Part shown: one piece after another, positions 2,697-28,733 of the stretch
Position numbering within the stretch: position 1 is the first letter of the stretch
Layout of the letters: every line of letters begins with the position of its first letter
NCBI GenBank assembly: GCA_964187785.1
Contig: OZ076409.1
Span: 55,802,001-55,866,000, forward strand
Reading direction: 5' to 3'
DNA length: 64,000 bases
Source: Amphiscolops sp. MND2022
Taxonomy: Eukaryota
Position numbers and translations under genes: made by a program
The notes under the pieces: model-generated
The model's input: the letters and a program-made list of their open reading frames with translations, nothing else
Databases searched by the model: none
Told to the model about the DNA's origin: nothing

Positions 2697-3016
2697 TGTT
2701 TTAAAGTAGCTCGAGTGGTTTTCTAGGCGAAAGCGTTTAGGTTCAATTCATTTATTGATATTCTATTTCACACAATGACAAATAATGGATGAACATTGAT
2801 TTATATTAGAGGAGAAATAATTCAACCTTTTTCCATTCCCGTTTTCTCTCTCATCAGTAGGTTTCCTTCTCTCTCTCCAGAATATTGTTCCCGTCTCCCT
2901 TTTGTTGGGTATTTCCATTTTTCTCGAATTTTCTTTTTTGTCCAATCATGTTTGAGAATACCATTCCTTCTGAATATCTTCATCCTAAAATAATACAAGT
3001 CATGATGAATATCACA
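2697..3016 (-). repeat. 3' LTR (320 bp)
   Basis: Runs tgttttaaagtagc...gaatatcaca. By eye it matches 16655-16975 except for about 2 substitutions and 1 indel. Confidence 0.96.
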
Positions 3017-3657
3017 GTCGGGCACTTTTTTGAAAAAGCGGTACCATCTAGCGAATTTGAACCATTTTTTTTGGCAAAAGTTTTGAATCGTGCCACAGTC
3101 CACCTGGAAGTCATGGGAGCATGCATATGTTTTTTTAGAGTATTTTTTTTTCGAGATTTTGGTTTCGGTCAAAGATTTTTCAACTAGGTGAAATCCTTTC
3201 AGCACAATTGGCTTCATTCAGTCGAAAGGAAAATCTCATTTTTTTTGTTTTCCAAAAGCTTTTAAGTCATTTGAATGTACTTTGAATAATGAGATGTGAA
3301 GATTCACTAATGGGTTTTCGTTTTTAAAGTAATGATTTCTTTCAATTTTCTTCCTTCTTCGATCAACTTTGCTGATTTCAGTCAATTTCGGTAATGGGTT
3401 TTCTGAATAGAAATTTGAATAGAAATGCAGATAAGAAGATTTGTTTGAGGGCATTGGCTCCAGTAATTGGTTTTTGAATAATTGAAGTTGGGTTTTTGGG
3501 ATTGTTTGAGGACTCACTCTGTTCGGATGAAGGGATAAGCAATTTTCTTCGCTAATGGAATTTTGCTCTTACGAATATGACCTCTTGTTTGTTTTCCAGT
3601 CATGAACCCAATAATGGGCAAAGTTTATAGGGGGTATGGAGATTTTCAGAACACGCA

Positions 3658-3921
3658 ATGCTGAAAGTTTTGCTGATGTTGGTTTTCTGTTGTGTGGCGT
3701 TTGCTTGCGTGAAAGTCAAGGTTGACACTGAGGGTCGTTTGGAAGCCATATGTTGCCCAAATGGAACGTTTCTCCTCAGGGACGGTGTTCGAACCTCCTA
3801 TGTTGAAGGATGGGGCTCTTTGTGCCCGCCAGTCACAACTGCTGAAGTTGAAGCGGGCAGCGATGTTGCCAAAGCAGGCCGGCTTGTCGCCCTAGTTTTG
3901 CTGAAGGCCTTGCTTCAATGA
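3658..3921 (+). CDS. Antisense accessory ORF, 87-aa putative secreted or surface peptide inside the retroelement
   Basis: ATG start and signal-peptide-like N-terminus MLKVLLMLVFCCVAFA. Further Cys residues, an NGT sequon and a hydrophobic C-terminus. TATA-like tttatag ~30 bp upstream (~3624-3630) and AATAAA at 4080-4085. Confidence 0.5.
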   Translation: MLKVLLMLVFCCVAFACVKVKVDTEGRLEAICCPNGTFLLRDGVRTSYVEGWGSLCPPVTTAEVEAGSDVAKAGRLVALVLLKALLQ

Positions 3922-4144
3922 AGTCGACCTCGAATTGGCCAGAACAAGATTCAAAATGATGCGGTTGTCAACGAACATCATTTTCTTGTTTAGTTTAGAT
4001 GACTAGTTTAGTTGATTTTGTCGCTTACATTTTCTTGTTTGTATCACTGTATGTTGAGTTCACGTGAAGTTGAGTGAGTAATAAAGGCCTAGCGCAATTG
4101 GAATAGTTATTGCTACAGCCCTGTACAAGCTTTTCAGGATATGA

Positions 4145-5521
4145 ATGCATACTGCCGCGCACTGCATTGCATTAATCCAAACTGCTTTAACAATGACTAG
4201 TACGTATTGTATTGCTGATGCTGCTTCCCGCGACTACAGGGCCCACCGCGATGAAGTTAATTTCAAGTAAGTTGTTCATTTCTTTTCGAGTTTTGGGAAA
4301 CTTCTAGGATGAAATTCAAAAATATGGCTCCATAGCATTAAAGAATTTTGTTCGGAGATTAATGTGAACTAATTTTCAAAGTCATATGTAGAGTCAGATT
4401 GAAGGGCGTTCACTTTGAAAGTTGAGAAGTTGATCATTTTGTTCTGTTCTTACAGCGTTACTGACGCATCACAGTTGTCGGAAAAGGATGCTGCGTTGCA
4501 TAATTCTAATCAAAAACGCATTGAAGACATTTGGGAGTTTTTACGCGAGGGTTCTGCTATGTTCCGTCTGGGCGTTCCCTCTTTTGACATTGTCACGTTG
4601 CAAGAAGGGGAAGAATTACCATGTTTCCCAAGTGCTCCAACGAAGGTGATCGGAGGGAATGTTATTCAGCCTTCGCCGGATCTTGAAAAATTATCGAAAG
4701 AAAAGAATCTCACCCGACGGAAGTTTCTGAACAGGGTTATTGTAGAAGAAGACAATGGAGAGCGAGCGTGCCCTGTGCTGCCTGGTTCGACCATCTTCCT
4801 TGAATGTTACCTGCCCGCTGGAAAGGAGATGTTCAAGTACCAGAAATTCGGAGGGTCGCAGGAAAGACGTTTCACTGCAACAAGAGGCTGGTGGTATACT
4901 GCGTCCCATTTCGAACCAGCAATGGGTGAGAGTGTGAGTCAACTGTTGTGTTCCGGTGATGGTCAAAAGGTTCGGTATTGGTAATTCTAAAAAGAGCAAA
5001 CACAACCAACAGGTCAGTACAAGAAATTTTATTGGTTTTTTTTTCTTTAGTTTTGGTTAACCACCAATTGTGAGAGGACTGCCCGTCTCGCGTTGAACGC
5101 CTTCACCACTCTCAATTCTTTTCTGGATTTCCTCTCAAGTGAACCCCAGAGATGGTACAAAGGGTTCCGCTGGTGCCTGCAGAGACCCGGAGAGACTGTG
5201 TTGCTGCCTGCTGGGTCGGTTCATCTGGTTGTAACAAGGCCCCCCGGTGGCGATCAAAGCTGCTGGACCTTTCTGCCTGGATACATCGGCTGGATTGAGG
5301 GTGTCGACCGGGAACGATTAATGCGTTCCATGCGCTGTGATTTCCGCAGAGGCTTCGAAAAGACTCCTGAAGAGATGGCAAAGTTGAAAGGGAACCACTG
5401 GGGGAAGTTTCAGGAGCTAGGTTTGGGAGCAAGCGGAACTGGAACTGCTCAACCCATCAACAGCAGTAAAAAATCGAAGAAAAGGAAGCGTTGTAACGGG
5501 CGGTTCGTGAAATCAGACTAA
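4145..5521 (+). CDS. Antisense spliced JmjC-domain protein (predicted exons 4145-4266, 4456-4969, 5051-5521; 368 aa), putative Fe(II)/2OG oxygenase or histone demethylase
   Basis: Introns 4267-4455 (gtaagt...ttacag, phase 2) and 4970-5050 (gttcgg...ctttag, phase 0) give one open frame. Motifs are WYTASHFE (H-x-E at 4907-4915), GQK|FWL and LQRPGETVLLPAGSVHLVVT (distal His at 5222-5224), with C-terminal KKSKKRKR. An alternative in-frame ATG lies at 4193. Confidence 0.8.
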
Positions 5522-5595
5522 GTATACATTTTTTTTTGAATTTCATGTATTTTTTTTTGTTTTCTTCCTGCATGCAAAGTGGACCGTGAATGAAG

Positions 5596-7851
5596 TTAGA
5601 GCTCAGTGGCCTCTTGATCATGTTTTCTCAGCCTCGATAAATACTGCCTCAGGAATGTATATGTTGACTTTTTGTCGGCTGTTTCATTGAAATCGGATTG
5701 AATTTCCAAGGGTACGACCAATGCACATTTATGTAATGGGTGCTCAGGATGTGCTTGGAGAAATTCATAGTCTTCAGGTTTGACTACAGATACCGGCAAA
5801 GTTTTGATTTTACGCCCCTCGTGTAATGTTCGAAAAGGAAATCTTTTGTGTATTTTAATCCATTTATGAATAAGATGCGAATAGCCCCAATGAAGTGCGA
5901 TGCTAATAACGAAAGACAATAACCCAAAACACAAAGACCATTTCCAGGGAATGTACTGCCCAAATTTTGCGTCAAATTCTGGCTTCATGTGGCGTAACTT
6001 TGAAACAATAGGTGCAGCCAGTTTATGTAAAGCTTCCCGATCCGGTGCAGAAGTTTCCAGGAATTGAAATTTCGGTTGAATGTCATCAAAGACTTGCTGT
6101 TGCGCTTCCGCGATTGAACTGAAATGTGGTAATTCTTCCAATGGAGGAATCAGTTCGAAAATGTTTGCTAAAGGATCAGGTAAGGTTACGTCCAAACGAA
6201 TACTTGGTAATAACGCACAAGCTGATAAGTCCGATCGTAGTCTGATGTTATCTCCTGCCAGTTGTCGCCCGCATGCCAAGGTTAAGATGCAAACCCTGCA
6301 ACCAGGGTGCTCGATTCTTTCCAACGGATTGCTGCCATTGCTGGCGGTTTCCACCAACTTGTAATTCGAAGAAGCTGCCATTATGAGCCAACGTCCAAAG
6401 CCGATGTTTTGCGCTTTTTCTGCCCTTGGTAGTTGAATAATATCCATCTTGCACCGTTCGATTGCCATCATGTGGTCACTGTGAAAAAACAAAGTGGCCA
6501 GACATGAATGCTTTGACGTGTCGGTAGGAATAGCCTTGGTGCAAATTGAATACCTTGTTGAACCAATGCACAAATCAAGATCTTCGTCGTTGATGAGAGC
6601 AAGTTCCTGATTATCCATCGAAATGGCTAGGTATTTTGCCTCGGGTCTCCAAAGGAACGCTCTCCCCGACTGTCCATCTGGCATCGGTATTGGTATCGCG
6701 TGTAAAACATTTAGCACGGTAGTTCTCGAAGCCATTGGGATCGCAAGTGTAAGCATTAAACCAGCCTTTGTAGGTACAACATTCGTTACAAGTTTTGATT
6801 CGTAATATGAAAGAATTTCCTGTGGTGGTATAGCCAAAGTTAGGCGATCAGCATTTCCGGATTCTCCAAGATGAATAGTGGTCAGAATATGTCTCAATTG
6901 TTCTCGAGGAACCAAAGAAATGGGCAAATAATGGTTGATGAGCGGTGCGAGAGCATTTAAGATGTTGATTCGAAAAGCATATAGGGCTGCCCGGTAACTT
7001 TTAATGTTGGTGTATAAGGTTTGAAAAATACTTTGTAAAATGATTGAATGATGTCCGGTCTGCTGTCGAGTGTAGAGATATTGTAAACAATTTCGCATTT
7101 CGTTGGTATTGTTGCGAATGATAGCGAACTGTTTCGATGCTGCCTCCCAGTTTTTGTTTTGAGTGTCAATAATGACCTGTTGTTTTGCTCGAACATCACG
7201 TAACTCCCCTGAGACCATGAAAAATTTATCATTTTGCTCACTTGTTATAGTTTTGATTTCATCAGTGATGATGTTCACGTACTGATATGCCGCTTCAATG
7301 TTCTTCTGATTTTGTTTGATCCTGCCATCGTCGCATCCACCAAATACTGTCTTCAGTACACAAACAACCTTTGAGCCGGCAATGCCCACGCCTAAAACTG
7401 CAGCGGCTCCAGCCAATATTGCAGGTAAACCCCTCGTCTGCCTATGTAGTTGGGCAGAGTCAGTCCCCGAGTGTCTCAACAGGCTCCCAATTTCGTCAAT
7501 TAGATATTTTATATCGCCCTGTGCTTCCTTGTTTTGCTGTAATACCTCATTGGCGATCCATCTTAGACCAGAAGAGTGGTCCTCGAGATTGGTGAAGTTC
7601 AACGGACAGCCGTAGTTTTTATATGTCCATAATTTTTCGATTTCGTTCGAAAGGTCCATGTAGCGCTGTTCTATGACAGCTTCGTATGAAGGAAAAGGAA
7701 CCAAGATGTCGATTTTCACAAATTTTTCGGTGAGCAATATTTGTTGTTTCAAATTGAAGATGACACCCTGTTTCGTTTCGGCGGTCTGGGAGTTAGTACA
7801 GGCAGTTGGGAGTGTTTGTAGGATGAGAAGGGCTGTAATTATAAAAGTCAT
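5596..7851 (-). CDS. env: Envelope glycoprotein, class I fusion (F-like) protein, 751 aa
   Basis: Signal peptide MTFIITALLILQTLPTAC. R-x-x-R site RQTR (7432-7443) directly followed by the fusion-peptide-like GLPAILAGAAAVLGVGIAG. Heptad-like helical region, Cys-rich ectodomain and a C-terminal TM segment WSLCFGLLSFVISIALHWGY. Lies downstream of pol between the LTRs. Confidence 0.88.
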   Translation of the reverse strand: MTFIITALLILQTLPTACTNSQTAETKQGVIFNLKQQILLTEKFVKIDILVPFPSYEAVIEQRYMDLSNEIEKLWTYKNYGCPLNFTNLEDHSSGLRWIANEVLQQNKEAQGDIKYLIDEIGSLLRHSGTDSAQLHRQTRGLPAILAGAAAVLGVGIAGSKVVCVLKTVFGGCDDGRIKQNQKNIEAAYQYVNIITDEIKTITSEQNDKFFMVSGELRDVRAKQQVIIDTQNKNWEAASKQFAIIRNNTNEMRNCLQYLYTRQQTGHHSIILQSIFQTLYTNIKSYRAALYAFRINILNALAPLINHYLPISLVPREQLRHILTTIHLGESGNADRLTLAIPPQEILSYYESKLVTNVVPTKAGLMLTLAIPMASRTTVLNVLHAIPIPMPDGQSGRAFLWRPEAKYLAISMDNQELALINDEDLDLCIGSTRYSICTKAIPTDTSKHSCLATLFFHSDHMMAIERCKMDIIQLPRAEKAQNIGFGRWLIMAASSNYKLVETASNGSNPLERIEHPGCRVCILTLACGRQLAGDNIRLRSDLSACALLPSIRLDVTLPDPLANIFELIPPLEELPHFSSIAEAQQQVFDDIQPKFQFLETSAPDREALHKLAAPIVSKLRHMKPEFDAKFGQYIPWKWSLCFGLLSFVISIALHWGYSHLIHKWIKIHKRFPFRTLHEGRKIKTLPVSVVKPEDYEFLQAHPEHPLHKCALVVPLEIQSDFNETADKKSTYTFLRQYLSRLRKHDQEATEL

Positions 7852-7899
7852 TTTGAATTTTTTTTGTGAAATTTATTTCGAGGCTTACTATTCTTTCGT

Positions 7900-8274
7900 C
7901 TAGCCAGGGATGCCGCGGCAGGGCGGGGTGGGCACTCGTTCGTTTTGTTCAGAGCCAGATTGTGCAGCGCGGATGAAATTGGTTGGGGCTTTATACATTT
8001 TCATGAGCTCGGACTTAACAGTTTGGAAGCGGACTTCATCCCACATGTTGAAGGCTGGCTTGCGGAAGTTATTTGAATGCAGATACAAAGTGAATTCAAT
8101 CCATCTGGGGCTCATATATTCAAAGTTTACTACTTGGTTGTTATGTAATGTTAGTTCGAGGTTTCGGTTCAGCAGGCGAATACTTTTGATGGCATATACG
8201 GTGTCGTTATAAAGACAATTCCAGTTCATTGGCAAAGGGGTTTTGGTTAGAGGCATTTCAAAAGGTGTCAACAT
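7900..8274 (-). CDS. Orphan accessory ORF (~124 aa) between pol and env
   Basis: Open frame from ATG 8274 (MLTPFEMPL...) ending 48 bp before the env ATG. Protein-like composition within an AT-rich spacer; no recognisable domain. Confidence 0.45.
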   Translation of the reverse strand: MLTPFEMPLTKTPLPMNWNCLYNDTVYAIKSIRLLNRNLELTLHNNQVVNFEYMSPRWIEFTLYLHSNNFRKPAFNMWDEVRFQTVKSELMKMYKAPTNFIRAAQSGSEQNERVPTPPCRGIPG

Positions 8275-8679
8275 AAACAAAGAATAAATACAATGAATAT
8301 TTGTTTTTTAATTAATTCGATTAAATGAAGAATTGTGTGAATTTTGAGTAAATTTAAGCGGTAAAAGAATTATGAGTTAACTAGTTGAAATGAAGATGTG
8401 GTTATTTGCAACAAATTGTAAGTTAATGAGTAGGTTAATAGAAGTTATGAAATAACACTAAGTAAAAGAAGTGAATTGTTATTAAGTGTAATGAATAATA
8501 AGTTGAATTAAAAACGAATAATTTTAATGAAATGTGGTTGATAATGTACGTGAAATAAATAGGTAAAAGATTTGAAAATTTGGAGTTCAGAATGCAAGAG
8601 TCAAGTTTGTTGTTCGTGTAGAAGCAAGAAGTTCGTTGAATGAAGCGAATTTTTATTATTTTTTTTGTTCATCGAATTT

Positions 8680-9075
8680 GAGCCAATCAAAGCGCAGTAT
8701 TCATCTTAGCCAATAAGCAAGTACTGCAGCCAATTGTTAAGAGCTTGATTTCAGCTTCAATTGCCGGGAGCCAGTGAAAATGCCTTATTGGGCGTGATTT
8801 ATTCGGAATTTCGGTAACCAAAGCGAGGAGGGCGCACGATTGATTAAGCAGCAATGACATAAGATTGCATCCAATCGCTTTCACGACCAAACGACCCAAT
8901 GGATATATTCTAAGTCGTGTTTTTTTTTCAGCAAAATGAAGACTAAACACAGAGCACGATTGATTAATGAAGCAATGATTGGATAAAGCTCTCAATCGCC
9001 TAAGCAACTGTAAGAATGGTTTCATTTACTTTGCGCGTTTAACATGAGTGCATTGAGCAATTGATTAAGGACACA
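8680..9075. promoter_or_regulatory. Putative internal promoter/enhancer in the pol-env spacer
   Basis: Cluster of CCAAT/ATTGG boxes (AGCCAAT at ~8681, ~8709 and ~8728, with more at ~8787, ~8871, ~8897 and ~8978). Three copies of GCA(CG/)ATTGATTAA at ~8834, ~8954 and ~9057. Confidence 0.35.
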
Positions 9076-9090
9076 ATGTAATATAATGAC

Positions 9091-12000
9091 TCAATCGCTT
9101 CCACTGTCGTAACTAAGATGTTGACGCAAATTACCATCAATGAGTTTTTGATGTAAAAGTAAAGGCACTACCCGTCTATTATGTGTTCTGGTGTTTTGTG
9201 GTCCTGTCTGTTGTCTGATTCGGCTGGTAAGCGGTGTTGGAGATGATACTTTCCGAGGTGGAGATGGAGATCGACTTATTGAAGGTTGTTCGCCGGAACT
9301 TGAGTAGTCTGAAATGGAATTCTTCGGACTTCGAAAGTGAAATAATGTCGTTTGTTCTCCGTTTGCATCACTGTCATTCGCTGGCAGTGTACTAGCGTCC
9401 GAAAAGTTGTCAATATCGTTGGCGTCGAAAAGTCTCCCGAATTCAATTTCGGAATCTGAATCCGGGCCGATAGGTTGGTTTATGTTAACGTCATCGTTGG
9501 GAAAGTGAAGTATAACTGATACTTCCTCTTCTTGTTCGTTGATAGCGTGTATTTCGTCATGAACCAACAGAACTTCGGTGTCATTATCGAAAATAGATTG
9601 AATGATCTTCAATGCTTCTGAGACAATCGTTTTCGGGAACTGTTCCATCTGTATTGCAACTTGCTTCTTCGTTTGTTCGTGCAAAAATGTCTTCACATCC
9701 TTCAATCCTTGTCTGAAGGCAGGAAGCGAGAAACCGTCCAGCTCATGCTTCCTTACTACAATGAAAATAATGGACTTGCCTTCTATGGTGCGAACGATTG
9801 TGTCGCCTACGTCTGCCCTTCTGATGGTTTCAAGTAATGCGATAGGTTGTGTAGTGTTGGTTATTCGAAGAAGTTGCTCCAATGTTAAACATTGCGATAT
9901 GCAATAGACGGTCTCAAACGTTGGGTTGCATGTTGACTCCAATTGTTGCTGCAAGTGACTGATAGAGTTATACATTGTGAACTGTCTTGCTAGGGCAAAA
10001 CGATCGTCGCGTCGCAACGCGTACCTTCGAGTGGCGCCATATCTCGCATCATCGGAAGAAGTTTCGTCCGGGTTGTCGATCCGATAATCGGTAGTGTCGA
10101 TGACTTCGGGACCGTCTTCCATCAGAGTTGGGACATGTCCTTCCACTACAAAAGATTCACGGTCAATGGCGTCGTGAAACGTTGGTTCTGATGTTGTTTT
10201 GATAGGACTTGTTGGTAAAGAATCAGGTTGGAAGGTGATGACACTACGTTCCGAGGAAAATTGAATGTTTTTGGTGAGTCCTGGATCAGACACTGTCTTT
10301 CGTTGCTGGAAGATATGTTGAACTATTGCATTGTCGAATAACTCAGGTTCTGTATTTTCATTCGTCAAAGAGGCATCCGGAGCGAAATTTTGCTCATTGA
10401 TATCCGGCAAGTCTTCGACGTCAAATTGAGGTTGGCATGGTCTAAGACGCATTCGGTGTAAGCATTGAGTTTCGTTGGTACCAACTTTGCGCACAATGTA
10501 GTTCGAGTTGGTGAGAACCTTTTCGACACGATAAAGCGGTAACCATTTCAATTTCCCTTTGCTCAAAGGATCATTTTGTGTGACACTTTTCGGTTCGAGA
10601 ATTAAGCAGTAAGAATGAAGATCCAAGGGTGTAGCGTTCGCTTTCCTGTCGTAATATTGTCTATAATTATGATAAGCTGCAATCATCGATTCTTTAGCTC
10701 GTTCGAATGATGCAGTGGCTGCATCTTGCAATTCCCGCAAAACTTCGAAGTTTGCTGGTGCGGTTCTCATTTTTGCATTTTGGAATCGTAAATCCAATGG
10801 AGTAATCGGTGGGCGTCCATGGAAATGATCAGAAGGCGTGCACCCAATAGATGGATTATAGGTTGTATTGTGAATAAAAACAGCGAAATCCAAATATTTA
10901 TGCCAATTCGTGAAGCTCTCGTTTGAATTCAATTTGAGAATGTGTTTCAATGGTCCATGGCTCCTTTCCACTAAGCCGATGGACTGAGCATGCTTCAAAG
11001 TGCAATATTTTAACTGAACTTCAAGCTGTGCTGTCAAAGCTGTCATTAGAGTGGAAGTAAAAGCTGTTCCCAAATCGCAAATAATCATCCGTGGAATGTA
11101 AGCGTGTCTCAGGAAGATACTGATCAAGGCTTTGGCAACATTGTCTGATTCTCCTTTTGTCAATGCTACGGCAAACAAGTATCGAGAAAACACATCTATT
11201 GCAGTCAACACAAATGTGTGAGGAGATGCTTGTAGTTTTCCAACCAAGTCGATTTGCATCGTGTCTGCTGGGAAATTTCGCTCTGAAGCTACGGGTTGTA
11301 GAGGTGGTTTGAGAGACACTTGCTTGGCTTCTTTCGTTTGTAAACATGTGAGACAGTTCCTGATATAATCAGTGAGAATTTCGGTGAAATTAGGAAAATA
11401 GAAACGTTTCCGAAATTCTGCGATAGTGCGAGTTATACCAATGTGTCCTCTCCATCTGCTGTTGTGTATTCGGTATAGTAATTCTTTTTGTAGGTGTTCT
11501 GGTACACAAAACTGTTCATGTGATACTTTTCCCGTTTGATCGAAAAACTTGCGGTAAAGAACGCCATCTTTCAGCATAAGTCGTGGTAGTTGTTTGAAGT
11601 ATTTGAGTTCAGTCGTTTTGAGATATGCCGGGCTAGGAGTTTTGTTGGTACGTATCCATTCGATTACTTTCGAGAGTGATTTATCCTGTCTTTGTTCCGC
11701 TGCTAAGTTCAGTGGAAGTTCATTGTTCGTGAAATTGAAATCATCTAGCGGGTTGGGCGAGGCAAGTGCATTGACAGAGTATAATCCGTTCACATAGGAA
11801 TCTGTTGGCTCCTCATCCCAAGGAGTATGTTCTGCAGCTAAGAAATGTGAAATAGAGTTGTCAGGTGTGTTGACAACAAAATCAACGGTAACTAATTGTG
11901 TAGGTAGTCGGTCGGATATCTTCAATCGTAACTTTTCGTGTGGATTGATGTGTATTCGTGATAGATAGTCAGCGGCAACATTAGTGTTTCCTGGTAAGTG

Positions 12001-14502
12001 TCCTAAGACGAAATTGAAGCTGAGAACATGGTCAACAGCGCTCCAAAGTGAAGATGGTATCGTTTTAGCTTGAAAGAATCTGGTCAGTGCCCTGTTGTCA
12101 GTCAGAATCAGAATAGGGTTCTGAATTCCCCAAACTATATGGGCAAAAGTTTGTAAAGCGAAGTGTACTGCTAGAAATTCTTTGGCATAATTTGACAATT
12201 TCAATTGACTGGGTTGAAAGATCTTAGAACCAAAGGACACTGGTGCGTATTGTTTTCTGCTCGTTTTTGTGTTCGTGTCACATGTGTAATCGTCTACCAA
12301 CAGAACGTAACCCGCTGCGTAGAATGAAGCATCTGCCATGATTATATATTGTTTTTCGACTATTGGCAGGCGAAGGGTCATTTGACAGGCATTCTTCAAG
12401 TCTTGATTGAGTATCTCAAAAGTTTCGTGATGTTTGTCGGTCAATTGGAATTCATTCGTGGATCGCAGCAACTGGTAAAAAGGAAGTAGTTTTTCTGCAA
12501 GTCCGGGTAAAAACGCTTTGTAAAATTGGTAAAAACCAATCATTCGTTTGACTTGTCTCACGTTTTTGGGAATAGGCAAATCTTTTAGAAACTTTTCTAC
12601 CTTTTCGAGTGTTGGTGCCATACCCTCAGAGGTGATCGTATTGCCCAAAAATTCAATCTTGTCCAGACCGAATTGACATTTGTTTACTGACAACTTGAGA
12701 CCTGAGTTTCGAATATGGAGAAAAACATCGTCCAAATGGGCTAACATTTCATCTACTGATTTGGCTCCAAGTCCAATATCATCGACGTACTGGAAACATT
12801 TGTCCGCTGTTATGACTGGGTCAAGAAATTTTCGCATGTAGGAACTGAAGGAACTCATTGAACGGCTGAGACCCTGGGCCAATCTTGTAAAAGCGAAAGT
12901 TCGCGATGAGAAATTGAAGGCAAGCAGTTGTATCGACCTTTCATCTGCCAAAGGAATCGTGAAGTAGCCCTGAGATCCGTCCATTTTAAAAAAGATTTTT
13001 TTTCCTGCTAAGTGCGAGCTCGCATCGGCTAAAGTTGAAATCGGAAAATTATTGTTGTGATAATCTTTCGTTATCAAGTGGTTGATCTTTCGTAAATCAA
13101 CCAAGAGGCGTAATTTCCCGGAAGGTTTCCGCTGTGCGAACAATGGTGATGAATATTTTGAGAAGTCTAGAGGCTTGATTATACCGTAATGTTGGAGCAA
13201 TGCTAATTCGACGAAAAGTTCATCTTTCAAATGGAGAGGTGTTGGTGGCGATTGGCTATAAACTGGATCATCATGTTGAGGCGTTAAGGTAACTGTGAAG
13301 TCTTTGCTTTTGCCAATATCTAACCGGTGTCGGGCAAAAATGTCATTATATCTCACAAATAAATCTTCAACCCTTTTTCGGTCATCCATTGATAATATAG
13401 ATCCTGTCCAATCGAAGTCGTTCAAGAATTTCTTGCGATGGTTTTCGTTTGTGATTGGGTCCATTTGCTCCAATGCATTGAATTTTTTAATGGTATCGTA
13501 AATTGTTTTCTGAGGACCTTTCAGTTGTTCTGGGTGTGCACAATTTTCTGGTGTCGCATACCATTCATCGGTTGTGAACTTTCTTGTTTCCTGAGTATGA
13601 TTTCCCGATTGAGTTAGTGAAATTGAATGTGACAAGTTCCTCTGTTGTTTCTGGTTGGAGATGCACTGAATCAAATTGTTGTCTAACGGTGTGAGATATT
13701 TCGCCTGTTCGGGAGTTAAAATTTCGAATTTAGCTACGCACGTATTGCTGGTAAATCTGATCGGTATTTCTGCTAGATTGAGTGCGAGTGCTTTTACACA
13801 TCCGTTGGTGACCTTTGACAAGGAATTTGTTAGGAACAATTGGTATTTCTTTTCTAGGGTTGCGATTGGTGTTACCACCCCCACTGTTGATTCCGCTTGA
13901 GCTTTTTTGTCTGCTTCTAATATTAGTAGCGCTTCTTGATTAGGTTGTATGATGATGTCTTCAGTAGTGTAAAGGTCGATGATTGTTGGTTTGGCATTTG
14001 CTTTTGACGTCAGTGAGGCGTCGGATTCGTACTGGCTGAGTATGAAAGACATTTGTGGTGACGTGAGGCGGCGATTACGGACGTCAATAGAAAGTTCATA
14101 ATTATGAAGAAATGGAAAACCAAGTAGAATGCTGTTCAGTTTTGGAAAAACTAAAAACTTCTCTTCGAATATCAACTGCCCAATTTTGAATTGAATTGTC
14201 GCGGTAAAGAGAACATGGGCTTTTTCGGTATGTGCCATGAGAACATTGAAATCTGGAGGAGGTGATTGCACGATACGGACATCTGTTTGGGTTGAAATGG
14301 CGTCGAAAATTTCTTTTGGCATACCACTGGAAAAAGCTCCAGTGTCTAATACTGCTCTATAAACTAATGTACCGAATTGACAAGGAACTAATAATGCATT
14401 AGAGGCTGGTTCTGGTACTTTTAATGTAATTGGTAAGTCAGGTTTGACTTCCGGTGCATGCATTGATGTAACTGGTGGCTGTGGCGTTTTATTCAGTTTT
14501 TT
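9091..14502 (-). CDS. pol: Pol polyprotein (aspartic protease, RT, RNase H, integrase, C-terminal macro-like extension), entered by -1 frameshift
   Basis: Uninterrupted frame of about 1800 codons. Motifs: VLDTGA (protease); LRLLVDLRKIN, RLAQGL and YVDD (RT); ADAS, KEFLA and TDN (RNase H); H-x5-H...C-x2-C and the DDE core (integrase). Confidence 0.96.
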   Translation of the reverse strand, partial: KKLNKTPQPPVTSMHAPEVKPDLPITLKVPEPASNALLVPCQFGTLVYRAVLDTGAFSSGMPKEIFDAISTQTDVRIVQSPPPDFNVLMAHTEKAHVLFTATIQFKIGQLIFEEKFLVFPKLNSILLGFPFLHNYELSIDVRNRRLTSPQMSFILSQYESDASLTSKANAKPTIIDLYTTEDIIIQPNQEALLILEADKKAQAESTVGVVTPIATLEKKYQLFLTNSLSKVTNGCVKALALNLAEIPIRFTSNTCVAKFEILTPEQAKYLTPLDNNLIQCISNQKQQRNLSHSISLTQSGNHTQETRKFTTDEWYATPENCAHPEQLKGPQKTIYDTIKKFNALEQMDPITNENHRKKFLNDFDWTGSILSMDDRKRVEDLFVRYNDIFARHRLDIGKSKDFTVTLTPQHDDPVYSQSPPTPLHLKDELFVELALLQHYGIIKPLDFSKYSSPLFAQRKPSGKLRLLVDLRKINHLITKDYHNNNFPISTLADASSHLAGKKIFFKMDGSQGYFTIPLADERSIQLLAFNFSSRTFAFTRLAQGLSRSMSSFSSYMRKFLDPVITADKCFQYVDDIGLGAKSVDEMLAHLDDVFLHIRNSGLKLSVNKCQFGLDKIEFLGNTITSEGMAPTLEKVEKFLKDLPIPKNVRQVKRMIGFYQFYKAFLPGLAEKLLPFYQLLRSTNEFQLTDKHHETFEILNQDLKNACQMTLRLPIVEKQYIIMADASFYAAGYVLLVDDYTCDTNTKTSRKQYAPVSFGSKIFQPSQLKLSNYAKEFLAVHFALQTFAHIVWGIQNPILILTDNRALTRFFQAKTIPSSLWSAVDHVLSFNFVLGHLPGNTNVAADYLSRIHINPHEKLRLKISDRLPTQLVTVDFVVNTPDNSISHFLAAEHTPWDEEPTDSYVNGLYSVNALASPNPLDDFNFTNNELPLNLAAEQRQDKSLSKVIEWIRTNKTPSPAYLKTTELKYFKQLPRLMLKDGVLYRKFFDQTGKVSHEQFCVPEHLQKELLYRIHNSRWRGHIGITRTIAEFRKRFYFPNFTEILTDYIRNCLTCLQTKEAKQVSLKPPLQPVASERNFPADTMQIDLVGKLQASPHTFVLTAIDVFSRYLFAVALTKGESDNVAKALISIFLRHAYIPRMIICDLGTAFTSTLMTALTAQLEVQLKYCTLKHAQSIGLVERSHGPLKHILKLNSNESFTNWHKYLDFAVFIHNTTYNPSIGCTPSDHFHGRPPITPLDLRFQNAKMRTAPANFEVLRELQDAATASFERAKESMIAAYHNYRQYYDRKANATPLDLHSYCLILEPKSVTQNDPLSKGKLKWLPLYRVEKVLTNSNYIVRKVGTNETQCLHRMRLRPCQPQFDVEDLPDINEQNFAPDASLTNENTEPELFDNAIVQHIFQQRKTVSDPGLTKNIQFSSERSVITFQPDSLPTSPIKTTSEPTFHDAIDRESFVVEGHVPTLMEDGPEVIDTTDYRIDNPDETSSDDARYGATRRYALRRDDRFALARQFTMYNSISHLQQQLESTCNPTFETVYCISQCLTLEQLLRITNTTQPIALLETIRRADVGDTIVRTIEGKSIIFIVVRKHELDGFSLPAFRQGLKDVKTFLHEQTKKQVAIQMEQFPKTIVSEALKIIQSIFDNDTEVLLVHDEIHAINEQEEEVSVILHFPNDDVNINQPIGPDSDSEIEFGRLFDANDIDNFSDASTLPANDSDANGEQTTLFHFRSPKNSISDYSSSGEQPSISRSPSPPRKVSSPTPLTSRIRQQTGPQNTRTHNRRVVPLLLHQKLIDGNLRQHLSYDSGSD

Positions 14503-15476
14503 GGATTGTCGCTTGAAGTTGGTTGAAGTTCAGCGTTCTGGTCCCGTTGCTGTGGGTACGGAATACTAGATCCTCGTCGTGGCGCTGGTTTGCTCCAACA
14601 GTTTTGTTGCGTGAGACCATTCTTGCCGCAATTACGACAGAAAGGTCGTCTGTTGCCACCACGACCGTATCCTCGTTGGTAACCTCTTGGTCCACCTCGT
14701 CCATATCCACGGTAGTTGTTGGACGGTTGGTAGCCTTGATTGTAGTAACTCGAATTGTAAGCCATGTTTGCTAACTGTTGATCATACTCTTGCTGGTTCA
14801 ATTGAAGTGCTTGTGTGACAGATGTAAGATGAGTGAGCGCTTCGAGCACTGCGTTGTTACTTGGTTCAATTGTGACTTCATTGAAAGCTGTTTTAAGCTC
14901 TCCATCGGGTGCAGATATGGCTGCGCGCAGTCGTCGTTTCACAATTTGGCAAAGGGCATCAGTATCTGTGCCATCCGGCTCGCGAAGGAGAACTTTTTTG
15001 AGTTTGTGTGGCATTCCTTCGATGAACTGGTGTCTGACTCTTCTCGTGCGTTCGTCGGTTCGGTCCACGGCTGGTCCTACACCGTCAGGAATAGCAACCA
15101 ATGCAAGTCTTTGTAAGTCAGTCAAATAGTCATCTGGCTCCTCGGTTTGTGGATCAAATTTTCGATTTGACAGAAGTGCGTCTGTGGTAGCTTGTTTATC
15201 AGCTCCCGCATAACGATCTCTTAAAGCGGTGAGTGCTAAGTCAACGTCATCTCGGGTTGCTTCGGGTTGTGCTAAGTAGAAGTACAGTGCATTTCCAGCT
15301 AAGTGCAAATGAAGATAACGGGCACGCTGATTGTTGGCATCTGGTATGCGTGCTACTGCGAGGCTGGCTCTGAAAAGTCCTTCGAATTGGGTGAAGTTTT
15401 CCTAGGGTGTTCCGCTGAAGGCTTTGAGGTGGATATGTGGTCCGTTTGCAGGTGCAGCAGGCGCTGCATGTGCCAT
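14493..15476 (-). CDS. gag: Gag, with one in-frame TAG at codon 25
   Basis: ATG 15476 reads MAHAAPAAPANGPHIHLKAFSGTP*ENFTQFEGLF...YLHLHLAGNALYFY, in frame with the 271-aa ORF. Capsid-like helical region, RGG-rich stretch and a degenerate zinc knuckle CRNCGKNGLTQQNC. The stop is at 15402-15404. Confidence 0.88.
14496..14502 (-). other. -1 ribosomal frameshift slippery heptamer A AAA AAC at the gag-pol junction
   Basis: The gag frame ends CCA AAA AAC TGA. The -1 frame reads KLNKTPQPPVTSMHAPEV straight into the pol ORF. Confidence 0.85.
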
Positions 15477-16138
15477 TGTTCAAAGAAAATTTGTTTTTCT
15501 TCACTTGGTCGTCTCCTGTCTTGTACTTGGGGTCCGGGCAAAAATTTTTTGTTTGTTTCGGCCCGGTTATTTTATTTTAATAATTATTGGCTGCTGCTAT
15601 ACGAATTTGTTCGATAGAACAAATTCGATCTCAAAAATTTCGTCAGAATTGCGAAATTCGCACTCTGTGGCGAGATATTGAGCCCCGAAATTGCGATAAA
15701 AGATAGAATATGGTGGGGTCGACGTCTTTGATTTTGTTTTTAAGTGTGCTCTGGGAGCCTTCTGTCGCATGCGAGCCAATGAAAATAGCTGTTCTGGTTG
15801 TAAGAGCGCATCGCTGGGGTTATTCCTTTTTTCGATTTTTTTTTGACAACGTCGTAAAAAGATAGTCGCAAAATAGGTATTAGTTCAGCTGGTAATTATA
15901 AAGTTCTCAAAATTCGATGATAACACTTGGGTTTGTTTTCGTAGCGCGATGCAATGCGAAAACCCTGCGTTAGTAACCACTATCTGCAAAATCTGTAAAA
16001 ATGTGATGGCGAAAATAGATAAAGTTTTCTTCGAAAACGACTTGTAGTGCTAAGATGTAATTTTTAAATGGTAAAGATTTAACTTATACAATGGATGATT
16101 TCTTGTAGTATGGTATTCAACAAGTGTGTTTGGAAAGA

Positions 16139-16516
16139 CTAATTTTCAGCGTCGTTACACGGATCTGAATAGTTTCCCACATACTCAATTAGTTCTTCAA
16201 AAGTATGTATGCAATTGATATTTGGGTCCAAAAGTGGTTGATAGTTTATCAAGGCAGTTTCTAATTGTTGCCATACCGTAGTATATTTGTAAACGAGCTG
16301 ATGAAATACCTGGTGTGGTGCGTCGAAGGTGACTCCCAGTAAAAGGATAGGTTTTCCATATGACCAATAAATTCGTTTGATTAATAAATCCTCATCTGGT
16401 GTAACCCATAACATGTGAACTGTGTGAAAAGCGAATTCAGGATTCAAATAATCGATGGAAATTTCCATTTGTTCGGTCTGTTTAAACAACTATTTCGGTG
16501 GTTGTAGATCGATCAT
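16139..16516 (-). CDS. Orphan ORF0 in the 5' leader upstream of gag (~109-125 aa)
   Basis: Open frame 16139-16489 with an internal ATG (MEISIDYLNPEF). An upstream in-frame ATG at 16516 is separated from it by a TAG at 16490-16492. No recognisable domain. Confidence 0.4.
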
Positions 16517-16636
16517 GAATGTATTTTCGTTACAATAAATACGAGAAGTTTGCGATTCTTTCAAATTCGGAAAATTCCTTCGGAAAATTTTGATTGTTTT
16601 GTTTTTGCATTGGTGAAGGTGATGGAGAATATTAAT

Positions 16637-16654
16637 GAGGACACCTTGTCACCA
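16637..16654 (-). other. Primer-binding site
   Basis: TGGTGACAAGGTGTCCTC follows the 5' LTR immediately on the minus strand; TGG complements the tRNA CCA end. The priming tRNA is not identified. Confidence 0.75.
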
Positions 16655-16975
16655 TGTTTTAAAGTAGCTCGAGTGGTTTTCTAGGCGAAAGCGTTTAGGT
16701 TCAATTCATTTATTGATATTCTATTTCACACAATGACAAATAATGGATGAACATTGATTTATATTATGAGGAGAAATAATTCAATCTTTTTCCATTCCCG
16801 TTTTCTCTCTCATCAGTAGGTTTCCTTCTCTCTCTCCAGAATATTGTTCCCGTCTCCCTTTTGTTGGGTATTTCCATTTTTCTCGAATTTTCTTTTTTGT
16901 CCAATCATGTTTGAGAATACCATTCCTTCTGAATATCTTCATCCAAAAATAATACAAGTCATGATGAATATCACA
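16655..16975 (-). repeat. 5' LTR (321 bp)
   Basis: Near-identical to 2697-3016 and flanked by the PBS and the TSD. Confidence 0.96.
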
Positions 16976-17397
16976 CTATGTAAAGCAGATAGTGACAAAG
17001 CTGATGGATCCTGTGAGGCAGTCTTCTTACGAAAGGTGACTCAGATCAAATCTATTTGAAAACCTCTAGCAACTTCCAATTTTTTGAAACGAAATATTAT
17101 GAAGGTTGTGTTTAAAAGTTACTTCAAGAAGGGAAAGACAGAGGTTTCACGGAAATGTCTCAAAAAACTTTTTCTCAGTGAGTATCAGGAGGTATCTAAA
17201 GCTTCCCGATACTACTATCCATATTTTATAACAGAAAGTGATTGTTTGTAAAATATGTTCAATGTTTGCAAATACAGTCTTCCTGTTCTTCAAGATTTTG
17301 AAATTAACTAAACATTATCCTTTTGCAAAAACATTGCGCTACATCCAAATTGTGCAAGATCTTGCCAAATTCTTTCATGTGAAAAAATTTCAAGCAT

Positions 17398-17620
17398 TTG
17401 GGAGTCGGACAAACTTTCGACTACTTATGCAATCGTCTCGATTTTTTTTCTCCCGACCTTTCATTGAAAATTTTGAATTTCTCATGAACTGACCGTAAAA
17501 TCTCCATAAACATTTGCACAGTCAATAAACACCCAAAGGTGCTCCTGCTTGCGCAAAGGCGTCAAAATCGTATGACTGGGATGTGAGAAACATAGTCGAA
17601 TTAGCTCAAAAATGACAATG
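17398..17620 (+). mobile_element. 5' fragment of the Helentron/DINE-1-like repeat
   Basis: Starts tttgggagtcggacaaactttcgactactt and continues into the caaaatcgtatgactgggatgtgagaaacat unit. Confidence 0.5.
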
Positions 17621-19800
17621 GATGCTTCTGGGAGCGCATGGTGTTAGCTGCAAGAAAACGAAGAACGCGATTCTTGGAAGTAGGCGTTTGGCATTGCCAA
17701 AACATAATACCACCATATTCTTCGTAGAGCAATCTCTAAACAAGCACCCAATCATAACTGTTAGTGATGTTCCTGGAACCTAGAAGCGCTGACACTGAAT
17801 CATTTTACTGGGACGAGCTATGGTATCTGAACCGTTGATTGCGTACCTGATGCATCACGATATGTCAATTGTCAACGAGTGTACTAAGTTTCTCAAGACT
17901 ACAACGCTCTGATTTGGCAACGAACGCCTAACGAATATCTCTCCCGCTGGAAAGTGAGATTTATGTGGGCCAACGATGACGAGTGTGTTTTGGGAGTTGG
18001 GCAGCTTGTGTGGTTGATAGATGACTCAGTGAAACGATCAGAGTGAATATTGGCCACGGTCTTGGAAGTGTTACTCAGCCATGACGGCATCATCCGAGCT
18101 GCAATGATCAAGACATTAGATGGAGTCTTCAAACGACTAGAGATAGTGCCAGTATTCTATGAGTGTTTTTCAACGGAAAACAGGGCCGACAATGTTGGCG
18201 CCACGAAATTTGTTAACCCTTGAAAAGTTACTTTGTGAATCATCCGAACCCACAACCGAAATCTATCAATTGTATGTGAAGATACTGCTATAAGAGTGCT
18301 ACACAGAACTGAAATCATATCCGAACTCATGACCTTCGAATGCTAAAGATCACGACCTTTGAAAGTTTAAAATAATAAAAACGTGCTTACCGACGATTTT
18401 CAACGACCTTTTTCACATACTTAGCGATGACTCTGGAATCCAAAAATGGGCGCAGGCCTAACTTTATCCCCTCTACCCGATTCTGATGTTTGCTTTGGAA
18501 TCTGAGACAAAAATTTCGCAATATGCACCGGACAGCCACACCCTGTATTTCAGTAACTTGATGACTTTGAACCCGAAGTGCTTGGCAAAGTTTGAGAAGC
18601 AACTTAGAGCTTCGAGGTTCACGAAAATGCTGCGTATTGTGAAATTAAAAGGTGATAATCTTAAATTTTATTCATATTCTTCCGATAATTTTGTGTTTCA
18701 CTTTTTATTGATTGTTTCATGTAAAATATGGTGTCCGTCTCATTCAAAACTCTTTAGTGGATGCAAGGTAATGCTCACACGTTTGTTTTTGTTGTTATAG
18801 TTAGTAATTAGCATAATAAGTCGAAACGGTACAGATAAATTATGTTCTGACGTTAAAAGTTTTACTTTTGTGGCGTGATATTACACTTCCTGTGCACTTC
18901 GACAATGCCCAATGGCAAACCTGCGGTAACCCAACCTTTTCACATTCATATTGTTGAAGTTGCTTTTTTTGATACTACACACCACCACCAAAATTTCGAA
19001 GGATACGTCGATTGGGTATTTTGTATATTGACCCTAAAAACGAGGTTAATTTTGCTGATCTTCAATTTGAGAAATGTTTTGATCACAAATTGAACCCCGC
19101 ATACCTTAAAGGAAATGAACAAAGTAACGAAAATCGAACGATGTTTTGAATATGTTATGTACACAATGCATATTGAGTAGTTGGATTGGAATAGTAATCA
19201 GGTTGATAATAATTGGAGATTTTCTTGTTCCTTTCTTCACAGTTGAATATAGAACGTAGATTTTAGTCAAGTTAGGAGAATAATCGAAGTATTGCTTTTT
19301 CGAAGAAGAAATTGAAAAATGAGGAATTATCATCTTTGAAACATCTTGACTTGCGTGTCTTGACAAAGATTTTCCTGCAATCTATTTTGTTCTCTGTTTC
19401 GTTGGTGGACGCAGAGATAACCAAGAACCGGCAAAAGCTTGAATCGCCCAATATGGCGATTTGAGTCAGCTGTTACAACTATCGATACGATTTGAACGAA
19501 TTTTTTTACATTCTTTATACACAGTATCAGGATCCTTGGTGTACAATGGATTCAAAATCGTATGACTGGGATCTGAGGAAAATTGCCAAAATTGGCCCGA
19601 AAATGATAAAAACGAGCCACTTTTTTTGATTTTCTCAAAACTGTCTACACGATTCGAACTAACTTTTCTACAGTCATTCAACAATTTTTTGGAGTTCTAT
19701 ATGTGCAATGGCATCAAATTTGTGTGGCTGGGATTTGAGAAAGATAAGCCAAAATTAGCCCAGAAAAAACCAAGAAACAGCCACTTTCGTACTTTTTTCA
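17620..19800 (+). repeat. ~2.2-kb duplicate of 26445-28600 (BEL/Pao integrase tail, LTR and flank)
   Basis: Colinear similarity throughout. The minus-strand ORFs 17899-18132 and 26724-26957 differ by one residue, and similarity continues beyond the LTR. Confidence 0.85.
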
Positions 19801-27628: not shown

Positions 27629-28279
27629 AAAAAGTCGAAAAGGTACAGACAACATGTTTTGACGTTTGAATTTATACTTTTGTGGAGTGATTTTACTTTT
27701 CCTGTGCACTTCGGCCATGCACTGCGGTAACTCAAGCTCTTCACGTGCATTGTGTTGAAGTTGCCTTCTCCGATATTACGCTTCACCACCATAATCTCGA
27801 AGGATACCTTGATTGGGTATTTTGTTTGACTTAAAAACGAGTATAAACTTGCTGATTTTTACATCTTCAAACTGAGGAATGTTTTGACCACCAATGGAAC
27901 CCCGAATACTTTAAAGGAAATGAACGAAGTTAGGAAATTCGAACGATGTTGTGAATTGTTATGTAAACAATGCTTATTGAGTAGTTGGATTGGAACAGAC
28001 GCTAGAATTCAGATTCATAATAATTGGAGATTTTCATGTTCCTTTCTTCACAGTCGAATATAGAACGTAGATTTTAGTCAAGTTAGGCGAATAATCGCAG
28101 TATTGCTTATTCGAAGAAATTGAAAACTGAGGAATTATCATCTTTGAAACATCTTGACTTGCGTGTCTTGACCAAGATATCCGTGCCAATCTATTTTGTT
28201 CTCTGTTTCGTTGGTGAGACGCAGAGATCACCAAGGACCGGCACAACCTTGAATCGCCCAATATGCAGATTTAAGTCAG

Positions 28280-28733
28280 CCGTTAAAACTATCCATACGA
28301 TTCGAGCAAAATTTTCTACATTCGTTATACACAGTATCATGATCCTCTGCGTACAATGGATTCAAAATCGTATGACCGAGATCTGAGAAACATAACCAAA
28401 TTTAGCCTAAAAATGACGAAAAACGGCCTTTTTTGGAGTTTTTTTTCAATTTTCTCAAAAACTGCCCATACGTTTCGAACGAAGCTTTCTACAGTCACCA
28501 ATATTGGACACTATGTGTGCAATGCCATCAAAATCGTATGACTAGGATCTGAATAACAAAGCTTTAATTGGTCCAAGAAACAGCCAATTTTGGACTTCCG
28601 ATTTTCTCAAATACTCTGTTTGAAAGAACTTTCATGGACTCTCACTACACCATTATACGGGCATAATACGTGCATAGCGAGTCAGAAGGAAAAAGATCTG
28701 AACTGACTCCTTTACCGCACATGCGGCTCTGGT
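28280..28733 (+). mobile_element. Helentron/DINE-1-like repeat copy with 3' end
   Basis: Repeat units followed by gactcctttaccgcacatgcggctctgg and tt. Confidence 0.55.

Follow-up and report, generated by a model that had tools for sequence, protein, structure and literature searches.

What an antisense JmjC gene could do for an envelope-bearing retrotransposon, and how a gene with predicted introns persists in an element that replicates through RNA, are the questions raised by a 64,000-nucleotide stretch of the genome of Amphiscolops sp. MND2022 (assembly GCA_964187785.1, contig OZ076409.1, positions 55,802,001 to 55,866,000). This whole stretch, referred to as the window, contains at positions 2697-16975 of its minus strand a 14.3-kb Gypsy element flanked by long terminal repeats (LTRs). 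By every feature examined, the element belongs among the Ty3/gypsy elements with an F-type envelope gene (env), a known kind (PMC13524379). Env-bearing Gypsy elements having been described already, the main new result is the JmjC cargo, which is found in several Gypsy lineages and in BEL/Pao elements of the same genome. From sequence analysis we propose, with evenly balanced confidence, that this young env-bearing Ty3/Gypsy element encodes in antisense a nuclear lysine demethylase that acts on repressive histone marks and would thereby sustain transcription of the element.

The antisense JmjC gene and its copy family

The JmjC gene lies on the plus strand, and three exons are predicted:

4145-4266, plus strand: predicted exon 1, the weakest exon; ATG in 14/14 copies, donor GT in 13/14
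4456-4969, plus strand: predicted exon 2; includes the H-F-E metal motif, its final residue being the K of G-x-K
5051-5521, plus strand: predicted exon 3; carries the distal His and a basic tail at the C-terminus

With two GT-AG introns, the predicted product has 368 amino acids, and its H-x-E...H metal triad is intact. The read-through translation scored 58 bits against a profile made from other sequences only, compared with a maximum of 2.8 bits in 200 shuffles. Family profiles matched the solved structures of PHF8, KDM7, JMJD6 and KDM2A (E 1e-5 to 7e-3), and the best and longest matches were to the PHF8/KDM7/KDM2 group. As judged by domain content, the window JmjC is not a member of the KDM2/7 family. 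A protein search with the read-through returned one relative, which is unnamed. The family-profile search found 239 proteins, of which one among the 120 listed was named ('hypothetical protein'), and a search of representatives gave 299 matches without names or context, the one name among ten looked up again being 'hypothetical protein'. No JmjC relatives were found in viral contigs, and no metagenome contigs were found for the relative P0177.

The copy family was collected by searching the host genome (1.07 Gb) for the LTR, with 40 of 82 candidates scored. It includes ten paired full-length copies (the window copy among them; 13.97-14.28 kb, 0.5-3.8% apart), each with its own 5-bp target site duplication (TSD) and with LTR pairs 0-3 substitutions apart; an eleventh, decayed copy (C1:44M) was excluded from the counts. 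Ten full-length copies with distinct TSDs and near-identical LTR pairs indicate that the family has been transposing recently, in agreement with the original prediction, made from the letters of the window. Open reading frames (ORFs) were present in these copies for ORF0 (10), gag (7), pol (5), ORFx (10), env (7) and the three JmjC exons (10, 10 and 8), and all eight frames were open together in three of the ten. The four accessory ORFs (the JmjC gene, ORFy, ORF0 and ORFx) are carried by every young copy; the original prediction, which would have failed had these ORFs not been conserved among copies, withstood this comparison.

Selection was estimated from the ratio of nonsynonymous to synonymous polymorphism (pN/pS), based on simple counts of distinct variants per codon with no correction for shared ancestry or multiple hits. 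JmjC exon 2 showed a pN/pS of 0.27 among the ten young copies (p 3e-4), and exon 3 showed 0.25-0.45 against each of four older copies (p <=0.009). The splice dinucleotides of the gene, whose splicing is predicted, are kept in 10/10 young copies and in most older ones.

JmjC cargo across the retroelements of the genome

Among 12 elements chosen by reverse transcriptase (RT) similarity alone, five (from two families) had a JmjC match and ten had an env match. A search for JmjC led to further loci. In some Gypsy elements an intronless JmjC sits between pol and env; in a distant Gypsy lineage (RT 27% identical) the JmjC gene follows env or lies within LTRs of 3.8 kb; and in BEL/Pao elements it is found beside pol or in the LTRs. 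At 19 JmjC loci, the gene is antisense to pol in all 15 that could be read, the remainder comprising one locus confused by a nested insertion and three without an element in the fetched stretch. The HxD/E...H triad is intact in 15/15 element-type rows, two element-borne relatives exceed the Pfam JmjC cut-off, and five of six JmjC pairs from other families show purifying selection (pN/pS 0.08-0.29). Two more multi-copy JmjC families account for about 50 of the 62 matches in the host JmjC search.

The JmjC tree (32 rows, ~100 columns, midpoint root; no host KDM2/7 orthologue among the 150 of 775 candidates scored) separates 15 element-type rows and 10 database rows from five host rows and two rows from SET-bearing repeats (support 94/98). 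The window JmjC clusters with the JmjC of the distant Gypsy lineage (98/96), and forcing together the seven JmjCs of the window's RT clade was rejected by the approximately unbiased test (p-AU 1.3e-5). The RT tree holds only elements of the Amphiscolops genome, in which the window RT is 57-66% identical to those of sister Gypsy families. The departure of the JmjC tree from the RT tree fits exchange between element lineages, which can be likened to the shared ORF pool described for rotifer retroelements (PMC5408684). As far as sequence comparison goes, the JmjC gene, ORFy, ORF0 and ORFx are all gene families common to many element families of this genome.

The two further multi-copy JmjC families were examined at two loci, C1:6.28M and C1:26.45M (L081-L084), which have JmjC near SET-domain ORFs, one of them also near a BRCT-like ORF, and show no gag, pol or LTR match. 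These families are possibly large DNA elements or endogenous viruses with a predicted histone writer and eraser.

Architecture of the element

The minus strand carries, in order, ORF0, gag, pol, a spacer, ORFx and env, and the plus strand carries the JmjC gene and ORFy. The features other than the JmjC exons are:

2692-2696, no strand: left TSD, CTATG
2697-3016, minus strand: 3' LTR, 320 bp
3658-3921, plus strand (antisense): ORFy, 87 amino acids; predicted signal peptide, three conserved Cys residues, hydrophobic C-terminal end
5596-7851, minus strand: env, 751 amino acids, class I F-type fusion protein; signal peptide, cleavage site, fusion peptide, long helices, transmembrane segment
7900-8274, minus strand: ORFx, ~124 amino acids from the first ATG; relatives in other elements
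8308-9090, no strand: non-coding spacer, pol to ORFx; the control ORF 8690-9025 inside it is broken in most copies
9091-14529, minus strand: pol, open frame of 1812 amino acids; protease, dUTPase-like stretch, RT, RNase H, integrase, family-specific tail
9538-10005, minus strand: stretch of the pol tail, weak candidate for a TARG1/DarG-type macrodomain
13726-14013, minus strand: dUTPase-like stretch in the protease-RT interval; Pfam match below cut-off
14493-15476, minus strand: gag; early in-frame stop at 15402-15404 in the window copy
14496-14502, minus strand: slippery heptamer AAAAAAC, predicted -1 frameshift site
16139-16468, minus strand: ORF0, 109 amino acids, in the leader; relatives upstream of gag in other families
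16644-16654, minus strand: primer-binding site (PBS), 11 nt, complementary to host tRNA-Leu(TAG) plus CCA
16655-16975, minus strand: 5' LTR, 321 bp
16976-16980, no strand: right TSD, CTATG

Much of this layout had been anticipated. The gene order on both strands, including an antisense JmjC gene and a small antisense ORF, is as predicted; the LTRs, said to differ at about 3 of 320 positions, align with 318 matches, two substitutions and one indel and end in TG...CA; and the TSD described as perfect is indeed identical at both flanks. The element shows the features of Ty3/Gypsy, namely TG...CA LTRs, a 5-bp TSD, a tRNA PBS, the pol order protease-RT-RNase H-integrase and an RT closest to Ty3. 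The PBS pairs over 11 nt with the 3' end of host tRNA-Leu(TAG) and its CCA, and no clean polypurine tract was seen in the element. Tandem arrays of tRNA-Leu genes with ~200-220 bp spacing and mixed anticodons are present elsewhere in the genome (C11:6.07-6.11M, L120-L122). The spacer between pol and ORFx did not earn the label 'regulatory' that it had been given: it has seven CCAAT boxes in 800 bp, within the 0-12 per 800 bp seen across the window.

RT, RNase H and integrase matches above the Pfam cut-offs all lie in the single 1812-codon pol frame, and the closest solved RT structures are those of Ty3 (4ol8, E 4e-32; 7q5b, E 1e-31). The dUTPase-like stretch matched PF00692 with E 3e-4 at 20.9 bits, under the cut-off of 22 bits. 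Pol and env had been called intact, and both frames are open (1812 and 751 amino acids), but a stop in gag was overlooked: in the window copy an in-frame stop interrupts gag near codon 24 (15402-15404), a site at which the other nine young copies have no stop, and this copy is for that reason gag-defective. The heptamer AAAAAAC is found upstream of the gag stop in the window element and in 4/4 sister families checked; its conservation fits the -1 frameshift foreseen for gag-pol, and frameshifting at this site is predicted.

The pol tail is limited to the window family and its older relatives, and the macro-like nature given to it in the original prediction is a weak lead. A single-sequence model of the tail was poor, with a predicted local distance difference test (pLDDT) score of 49. 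TARG1/DarG-type macrodomains top both fold searches made with this low-confidence model (C6orf130, E 0.03; Poa1p, Z 3.4, root-mean-square deviation 5.2 over 92 residues; DarG, Z 3.3), Atlas gave a Macro lead with a score under 0.9, and no Pfam match was found for the tail.

The env protein has a signal peptide, an RQTR furin cleavage site (residues 137-140), a hydrophobic fusion peptide (141-159), a transmembrane segment (~640-656) and a paramyxovirus-F fold, as do F-type envelopes, which have been described for Ty3/gypsy elements across animals (PMC13524379). In its model (pLDDT 71), the best paramyxovirus match was respirovirus F (E 1.6e-6), with TM-scores of only 0.2-0.3; baculovirus F (E 5e-19) and other F-type proteins of invertebrate viruses (E to 1e-19) were matched as well. 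A single-sequence search of PDB with env was blank, and the env profile reached only E 0.008 there. A protein search found 27 relatives, all unnamed; none was found in viral contigs, and one 3.8-kb metagenome contig had an env match. Among the ten young copies env showed a pN/pS of 0.17. Such a protein would be predicted to have fusion activity and to mediate cell entry, and may confer infectivity.

ORF0, ORFx and ORFy

Among the ten young copies, ORF0 (pN/pS 0.22, p 0.005) and ORFx (0.29, p 0.006) showed low ratios, pol gave 0.29, and four control frames gave 0.68-1.76, none significant. By this measure ORF0 and ORFx are under purifying selection. The frames at 3239-3568, 8690-9025, 15600-15884 and 15250-15492 were considered as genes and rejected, having no significant selection. 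Two other elements examined have an ORF0 relative ahead of gag; ORFx relatives precede env in two elements and lie within the long repeats of a third. In this last element (C13:10.10M, L098-L099), each of the 3.4-kb direct repeats includes a relative of ORFx, and the element also contains an ORF for endonuclease VII. ORF0, ORFx and ORFy had no meaningful Pfam match, and ORFx had no usable Atlas match. The suggestion that the whole accessory set is aimed at host defences goes beyond the sequence evidence, ORF0 and ORFx having no assignable function.

ORFy showed a pN/pS of 0.57 (p 0.005) among the young copies and occurs in three allele classes, with the ORFy region 35-36% or 14% different in copies whose pol is less than 2% different. 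An older copy 7% away in pol carries the window's ORFy allele. Divergent alleles in a near-identical backbone, together with this older copy, point to recombination of a long-kept polymorphism. A profile search found an ORFy relative in 15 fetched related elements, antisense and adjoining env in each, six of the 15 having helped to build the profile. Its allelic diversity makes ORFy a likely surface protein, with a probable role in blocking or evading competing entry.

Elsewhere in the window, pieces of host genes matching NAD-dependent epimerase and GDP-mannose dehydratase families are located at 223-1190, and two frame-broken Gypsy-type elements at 40400-46350 and 56500-63420, the second of which shares an RT clade with the studied element. 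A satellite-like repeat of ~170 bp occurs in both orientations at 32300-34900, with copies at 1-260, 17440-17620, 19400-19790 and 28200-28590.

Proposed function and alternative explanations

In the proposed mechanism, a separate antisense transcript would be spliced and the genomic RNA of the opposite strand would not; the JmjC introns may survive retrotransposition because the genomic RNA is not spliced there. The protein would bind Fe(II) and 2-oxoglutarate, enter the nucleus by means of its basic tail and remove marks of the PHF8/KDM7 type. The substrates of PHF8/KDM7 are H3K9me1/2 or H3K27me2. The cassette would pass between element lineages by recombination, with env likely giving cell entry and ORFy likely interfering with that of competitors. 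More tentatively, and at somewhat below even probability, Gypsy and BEL/Pao lineages may trade antisense, retroelement-specific histone demethylases that erase repressive chromatin, paired with ORFy as a hypervariable entry-interference locus. Chromatin domains in transposons have a precedent (bioRxiv 10.1101/2021.11.30.470311), and endogenised giant viruses carry KDM4-like, domain-only genes for which a comparable role against host chromatin has been proposed (PMC11244446).

Several observations weigh against a histone demethylase that serves the element. In the young copies exon 3 had a pN/pS of 1.44 on 12 variants, no sign of selection, and it is broken in two of the ten; selection on exon 1 was significant in only one of six pairwise comparisons; and exon 3 alone matched the Pfam JmjC domain PF02373 with E 0.024 at 15.5 bits (cut-off 24, exons scanned separately). 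No PHD, CXXC or F-box companion domain was found by Pfam in the exons or in the intronless relatives, the score of the hydroxylase JMJD6 is close to that of PHF8, and the tails of the distant Gypsy and BEL JmjCs are only weakly basic (2-3 K/R in 10). An earlier tree was already known when the JmjC clade to be tested was chosen, and the tree itself has a short alignment, a midpoint root and no host KDM2/7. Finally, four env families of 13-14 kb carry a different antisense gene in the JmjC slot and are equally young, indicating that JmjC is not required.

The replacement in these JmjC-less families is a multi-exon antisense gene with a GGECFFSS motif (L053:8901-9794, L055:9030-9829, L061:9290-9694 and a match in L058; weaker in L096 and L100), for which no Pfam match was found. 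The motif resembles the active site of OTU deubiquitinases. This suggests a swappable enzyme slot adjoining ORFy in env-bearing sister families. Two Gypsy sister families without an env match (L059-L060, L063-L064) have other long antisense ORFs of up to 456 amino acids, with no Pfam match.

The main alternative, which we regard as less likely, is that the JmjC enzyme is active but, in the manner of JMJD6, hydroxylates or demethylates something other than histones (splicing, RNA or small-RNA-pathway proteins, or those of the element itself). The closeness of JMJD6, within ~1-2 orders of magnitude of PHF8 in profile searches, the lack of a histone-reader domain and the plant Gypsy lineage with the RNA-acting 2-oxoglutarate enzyme AlkB (PMC9289625) would agree with such a target; the rank and length of the PHF8/KDM7/KDM2 matches argue for histones, as does the basic tail, which the window protein shares with its Gypsy sister families. 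Retention of the cassette for host benefit or as an old passenger, with no role in escape from silencing, appears improbable in view of purifying selection across dispersed element copies and families. The position of JmjC also varies (after env, before env, in LTRs) under a constant orientation, which fits repeated retention by elements. This explanation draws on the JmjC-less sister families, which are likewise young and multi-copy, and on the 3 of 19 JmjC loci that have no element context in the fetched stretch.

The original prediction had further given the element a 'complex-retrovirus' character. That it is a true infectious Retroviridae-like retrovirus with retroviral-style accessory genes is very improbable: env matches the F proteins of paramyxoviruses and baculoviruses, the RT is 57-66% identical to those of Gypsy families in this genome, of which two lack an env match, and neither JmjC nor env has a relative in the viral contigs searched. 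A retrovirus would be consistent with the strong selection on an env frame open in 7/10 copies, with the dUTPase-like stretch and with the scores of the next polymerases after Ty3, which are almost equal to it. We take these polymerases to be of the foamy-virus type. Overall the element conforms to the known env-bearing kind of Ty3/Gypsy element (PMC13524379), and we favour its JmjC product as a candidate histone demethylase.

Comparison with known systems

The 'ancient errantiviruses' (PMC13524379) resemble the window element in their LTR-gag-pol-env organization, F-type env with a signal peptide, furin site, fusion peptide and transmembrane segment, tRNA-Leu PBS and multiple near-identical copies; the window element departs from them in having four additional ORFs, distributed over both strands. 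The words 'antisense', 'accessory', 'JmjC', 'dUTPase' and 'macro' occur nowhere in the main text of that source, and its supplements could list the family. The bdelloid rotifer elements TelKA, Juno and Vesta, as described in PMC5408684, share the dUTPase between protease and RT, a paramyxovirus-like env in one lineage and enzymatic extra ORFs pooled among unrelated retroelements. Their cargo is a GDSL esterase or DEDDy exonuclease as ORF3, in contrast to the antisense, partly intron-bearing JmjC found here with a variable membrane protein and env.

Orchids, too, have a Gypsy lineage in which a 2-oxoglutarate/Fe(II) enzyme has become fixed, the AlkB 2-oxoglutarate-dependent dioxygenase (2-ODD), with a proposed counter-surveillance role; that AlkB acts on N6-methyladenosine (m6A) in RNA, is near to host enzymes and is reported there from one plant genus (PMC9289625), whereas the JmjC described here is diverged and spread over Gypsy and BEL/Pao. 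In Amoebidium, endogenised giant viruses carry domain-only JmjC genes with introns, proposed to act against host chromatin (PMC11244446). Those are KDM4-like genes of a giant DNA virus, whereas the present ones belong to LTR retroelements and are closest to PHF8/KDM7/JMJD6. In plant Retand, antisense ORFs are likewise conserved in the interval from pol to the 3' LTR, but Retand encodes TRP28 and has no env (PMC11963269), and planarian Burro combines env with host-modulating domains in a large animal Gypsy element but fuses them in one polyprotein (PMC6431247); the texts on both make no mention of JmjC or Jumonji. No JmjC-carrying LTR element was found in the literature searched, a scope that excludes subscription papers, Repbase and supplements.

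How retrotransposons persist under chromatin silencing is an open question, and the literature searched holds no LTR-encoded eraser of histone marks. The JmjC candidate is small, has a single domain and counts intronless relatives, which makes it amenable to direct expression and assay, and the sister families with and without JmjC offer a natural comparison. That ORFy has three alleles in copies whose backbone is nearly identical points to cell-surface selection and would indirectly indicate a cell-to-cell phase. The fixed antisense orientation of the JmjC gene illustrates how a gene with predicted introns could be kept by an element whose replication passes through RNA.

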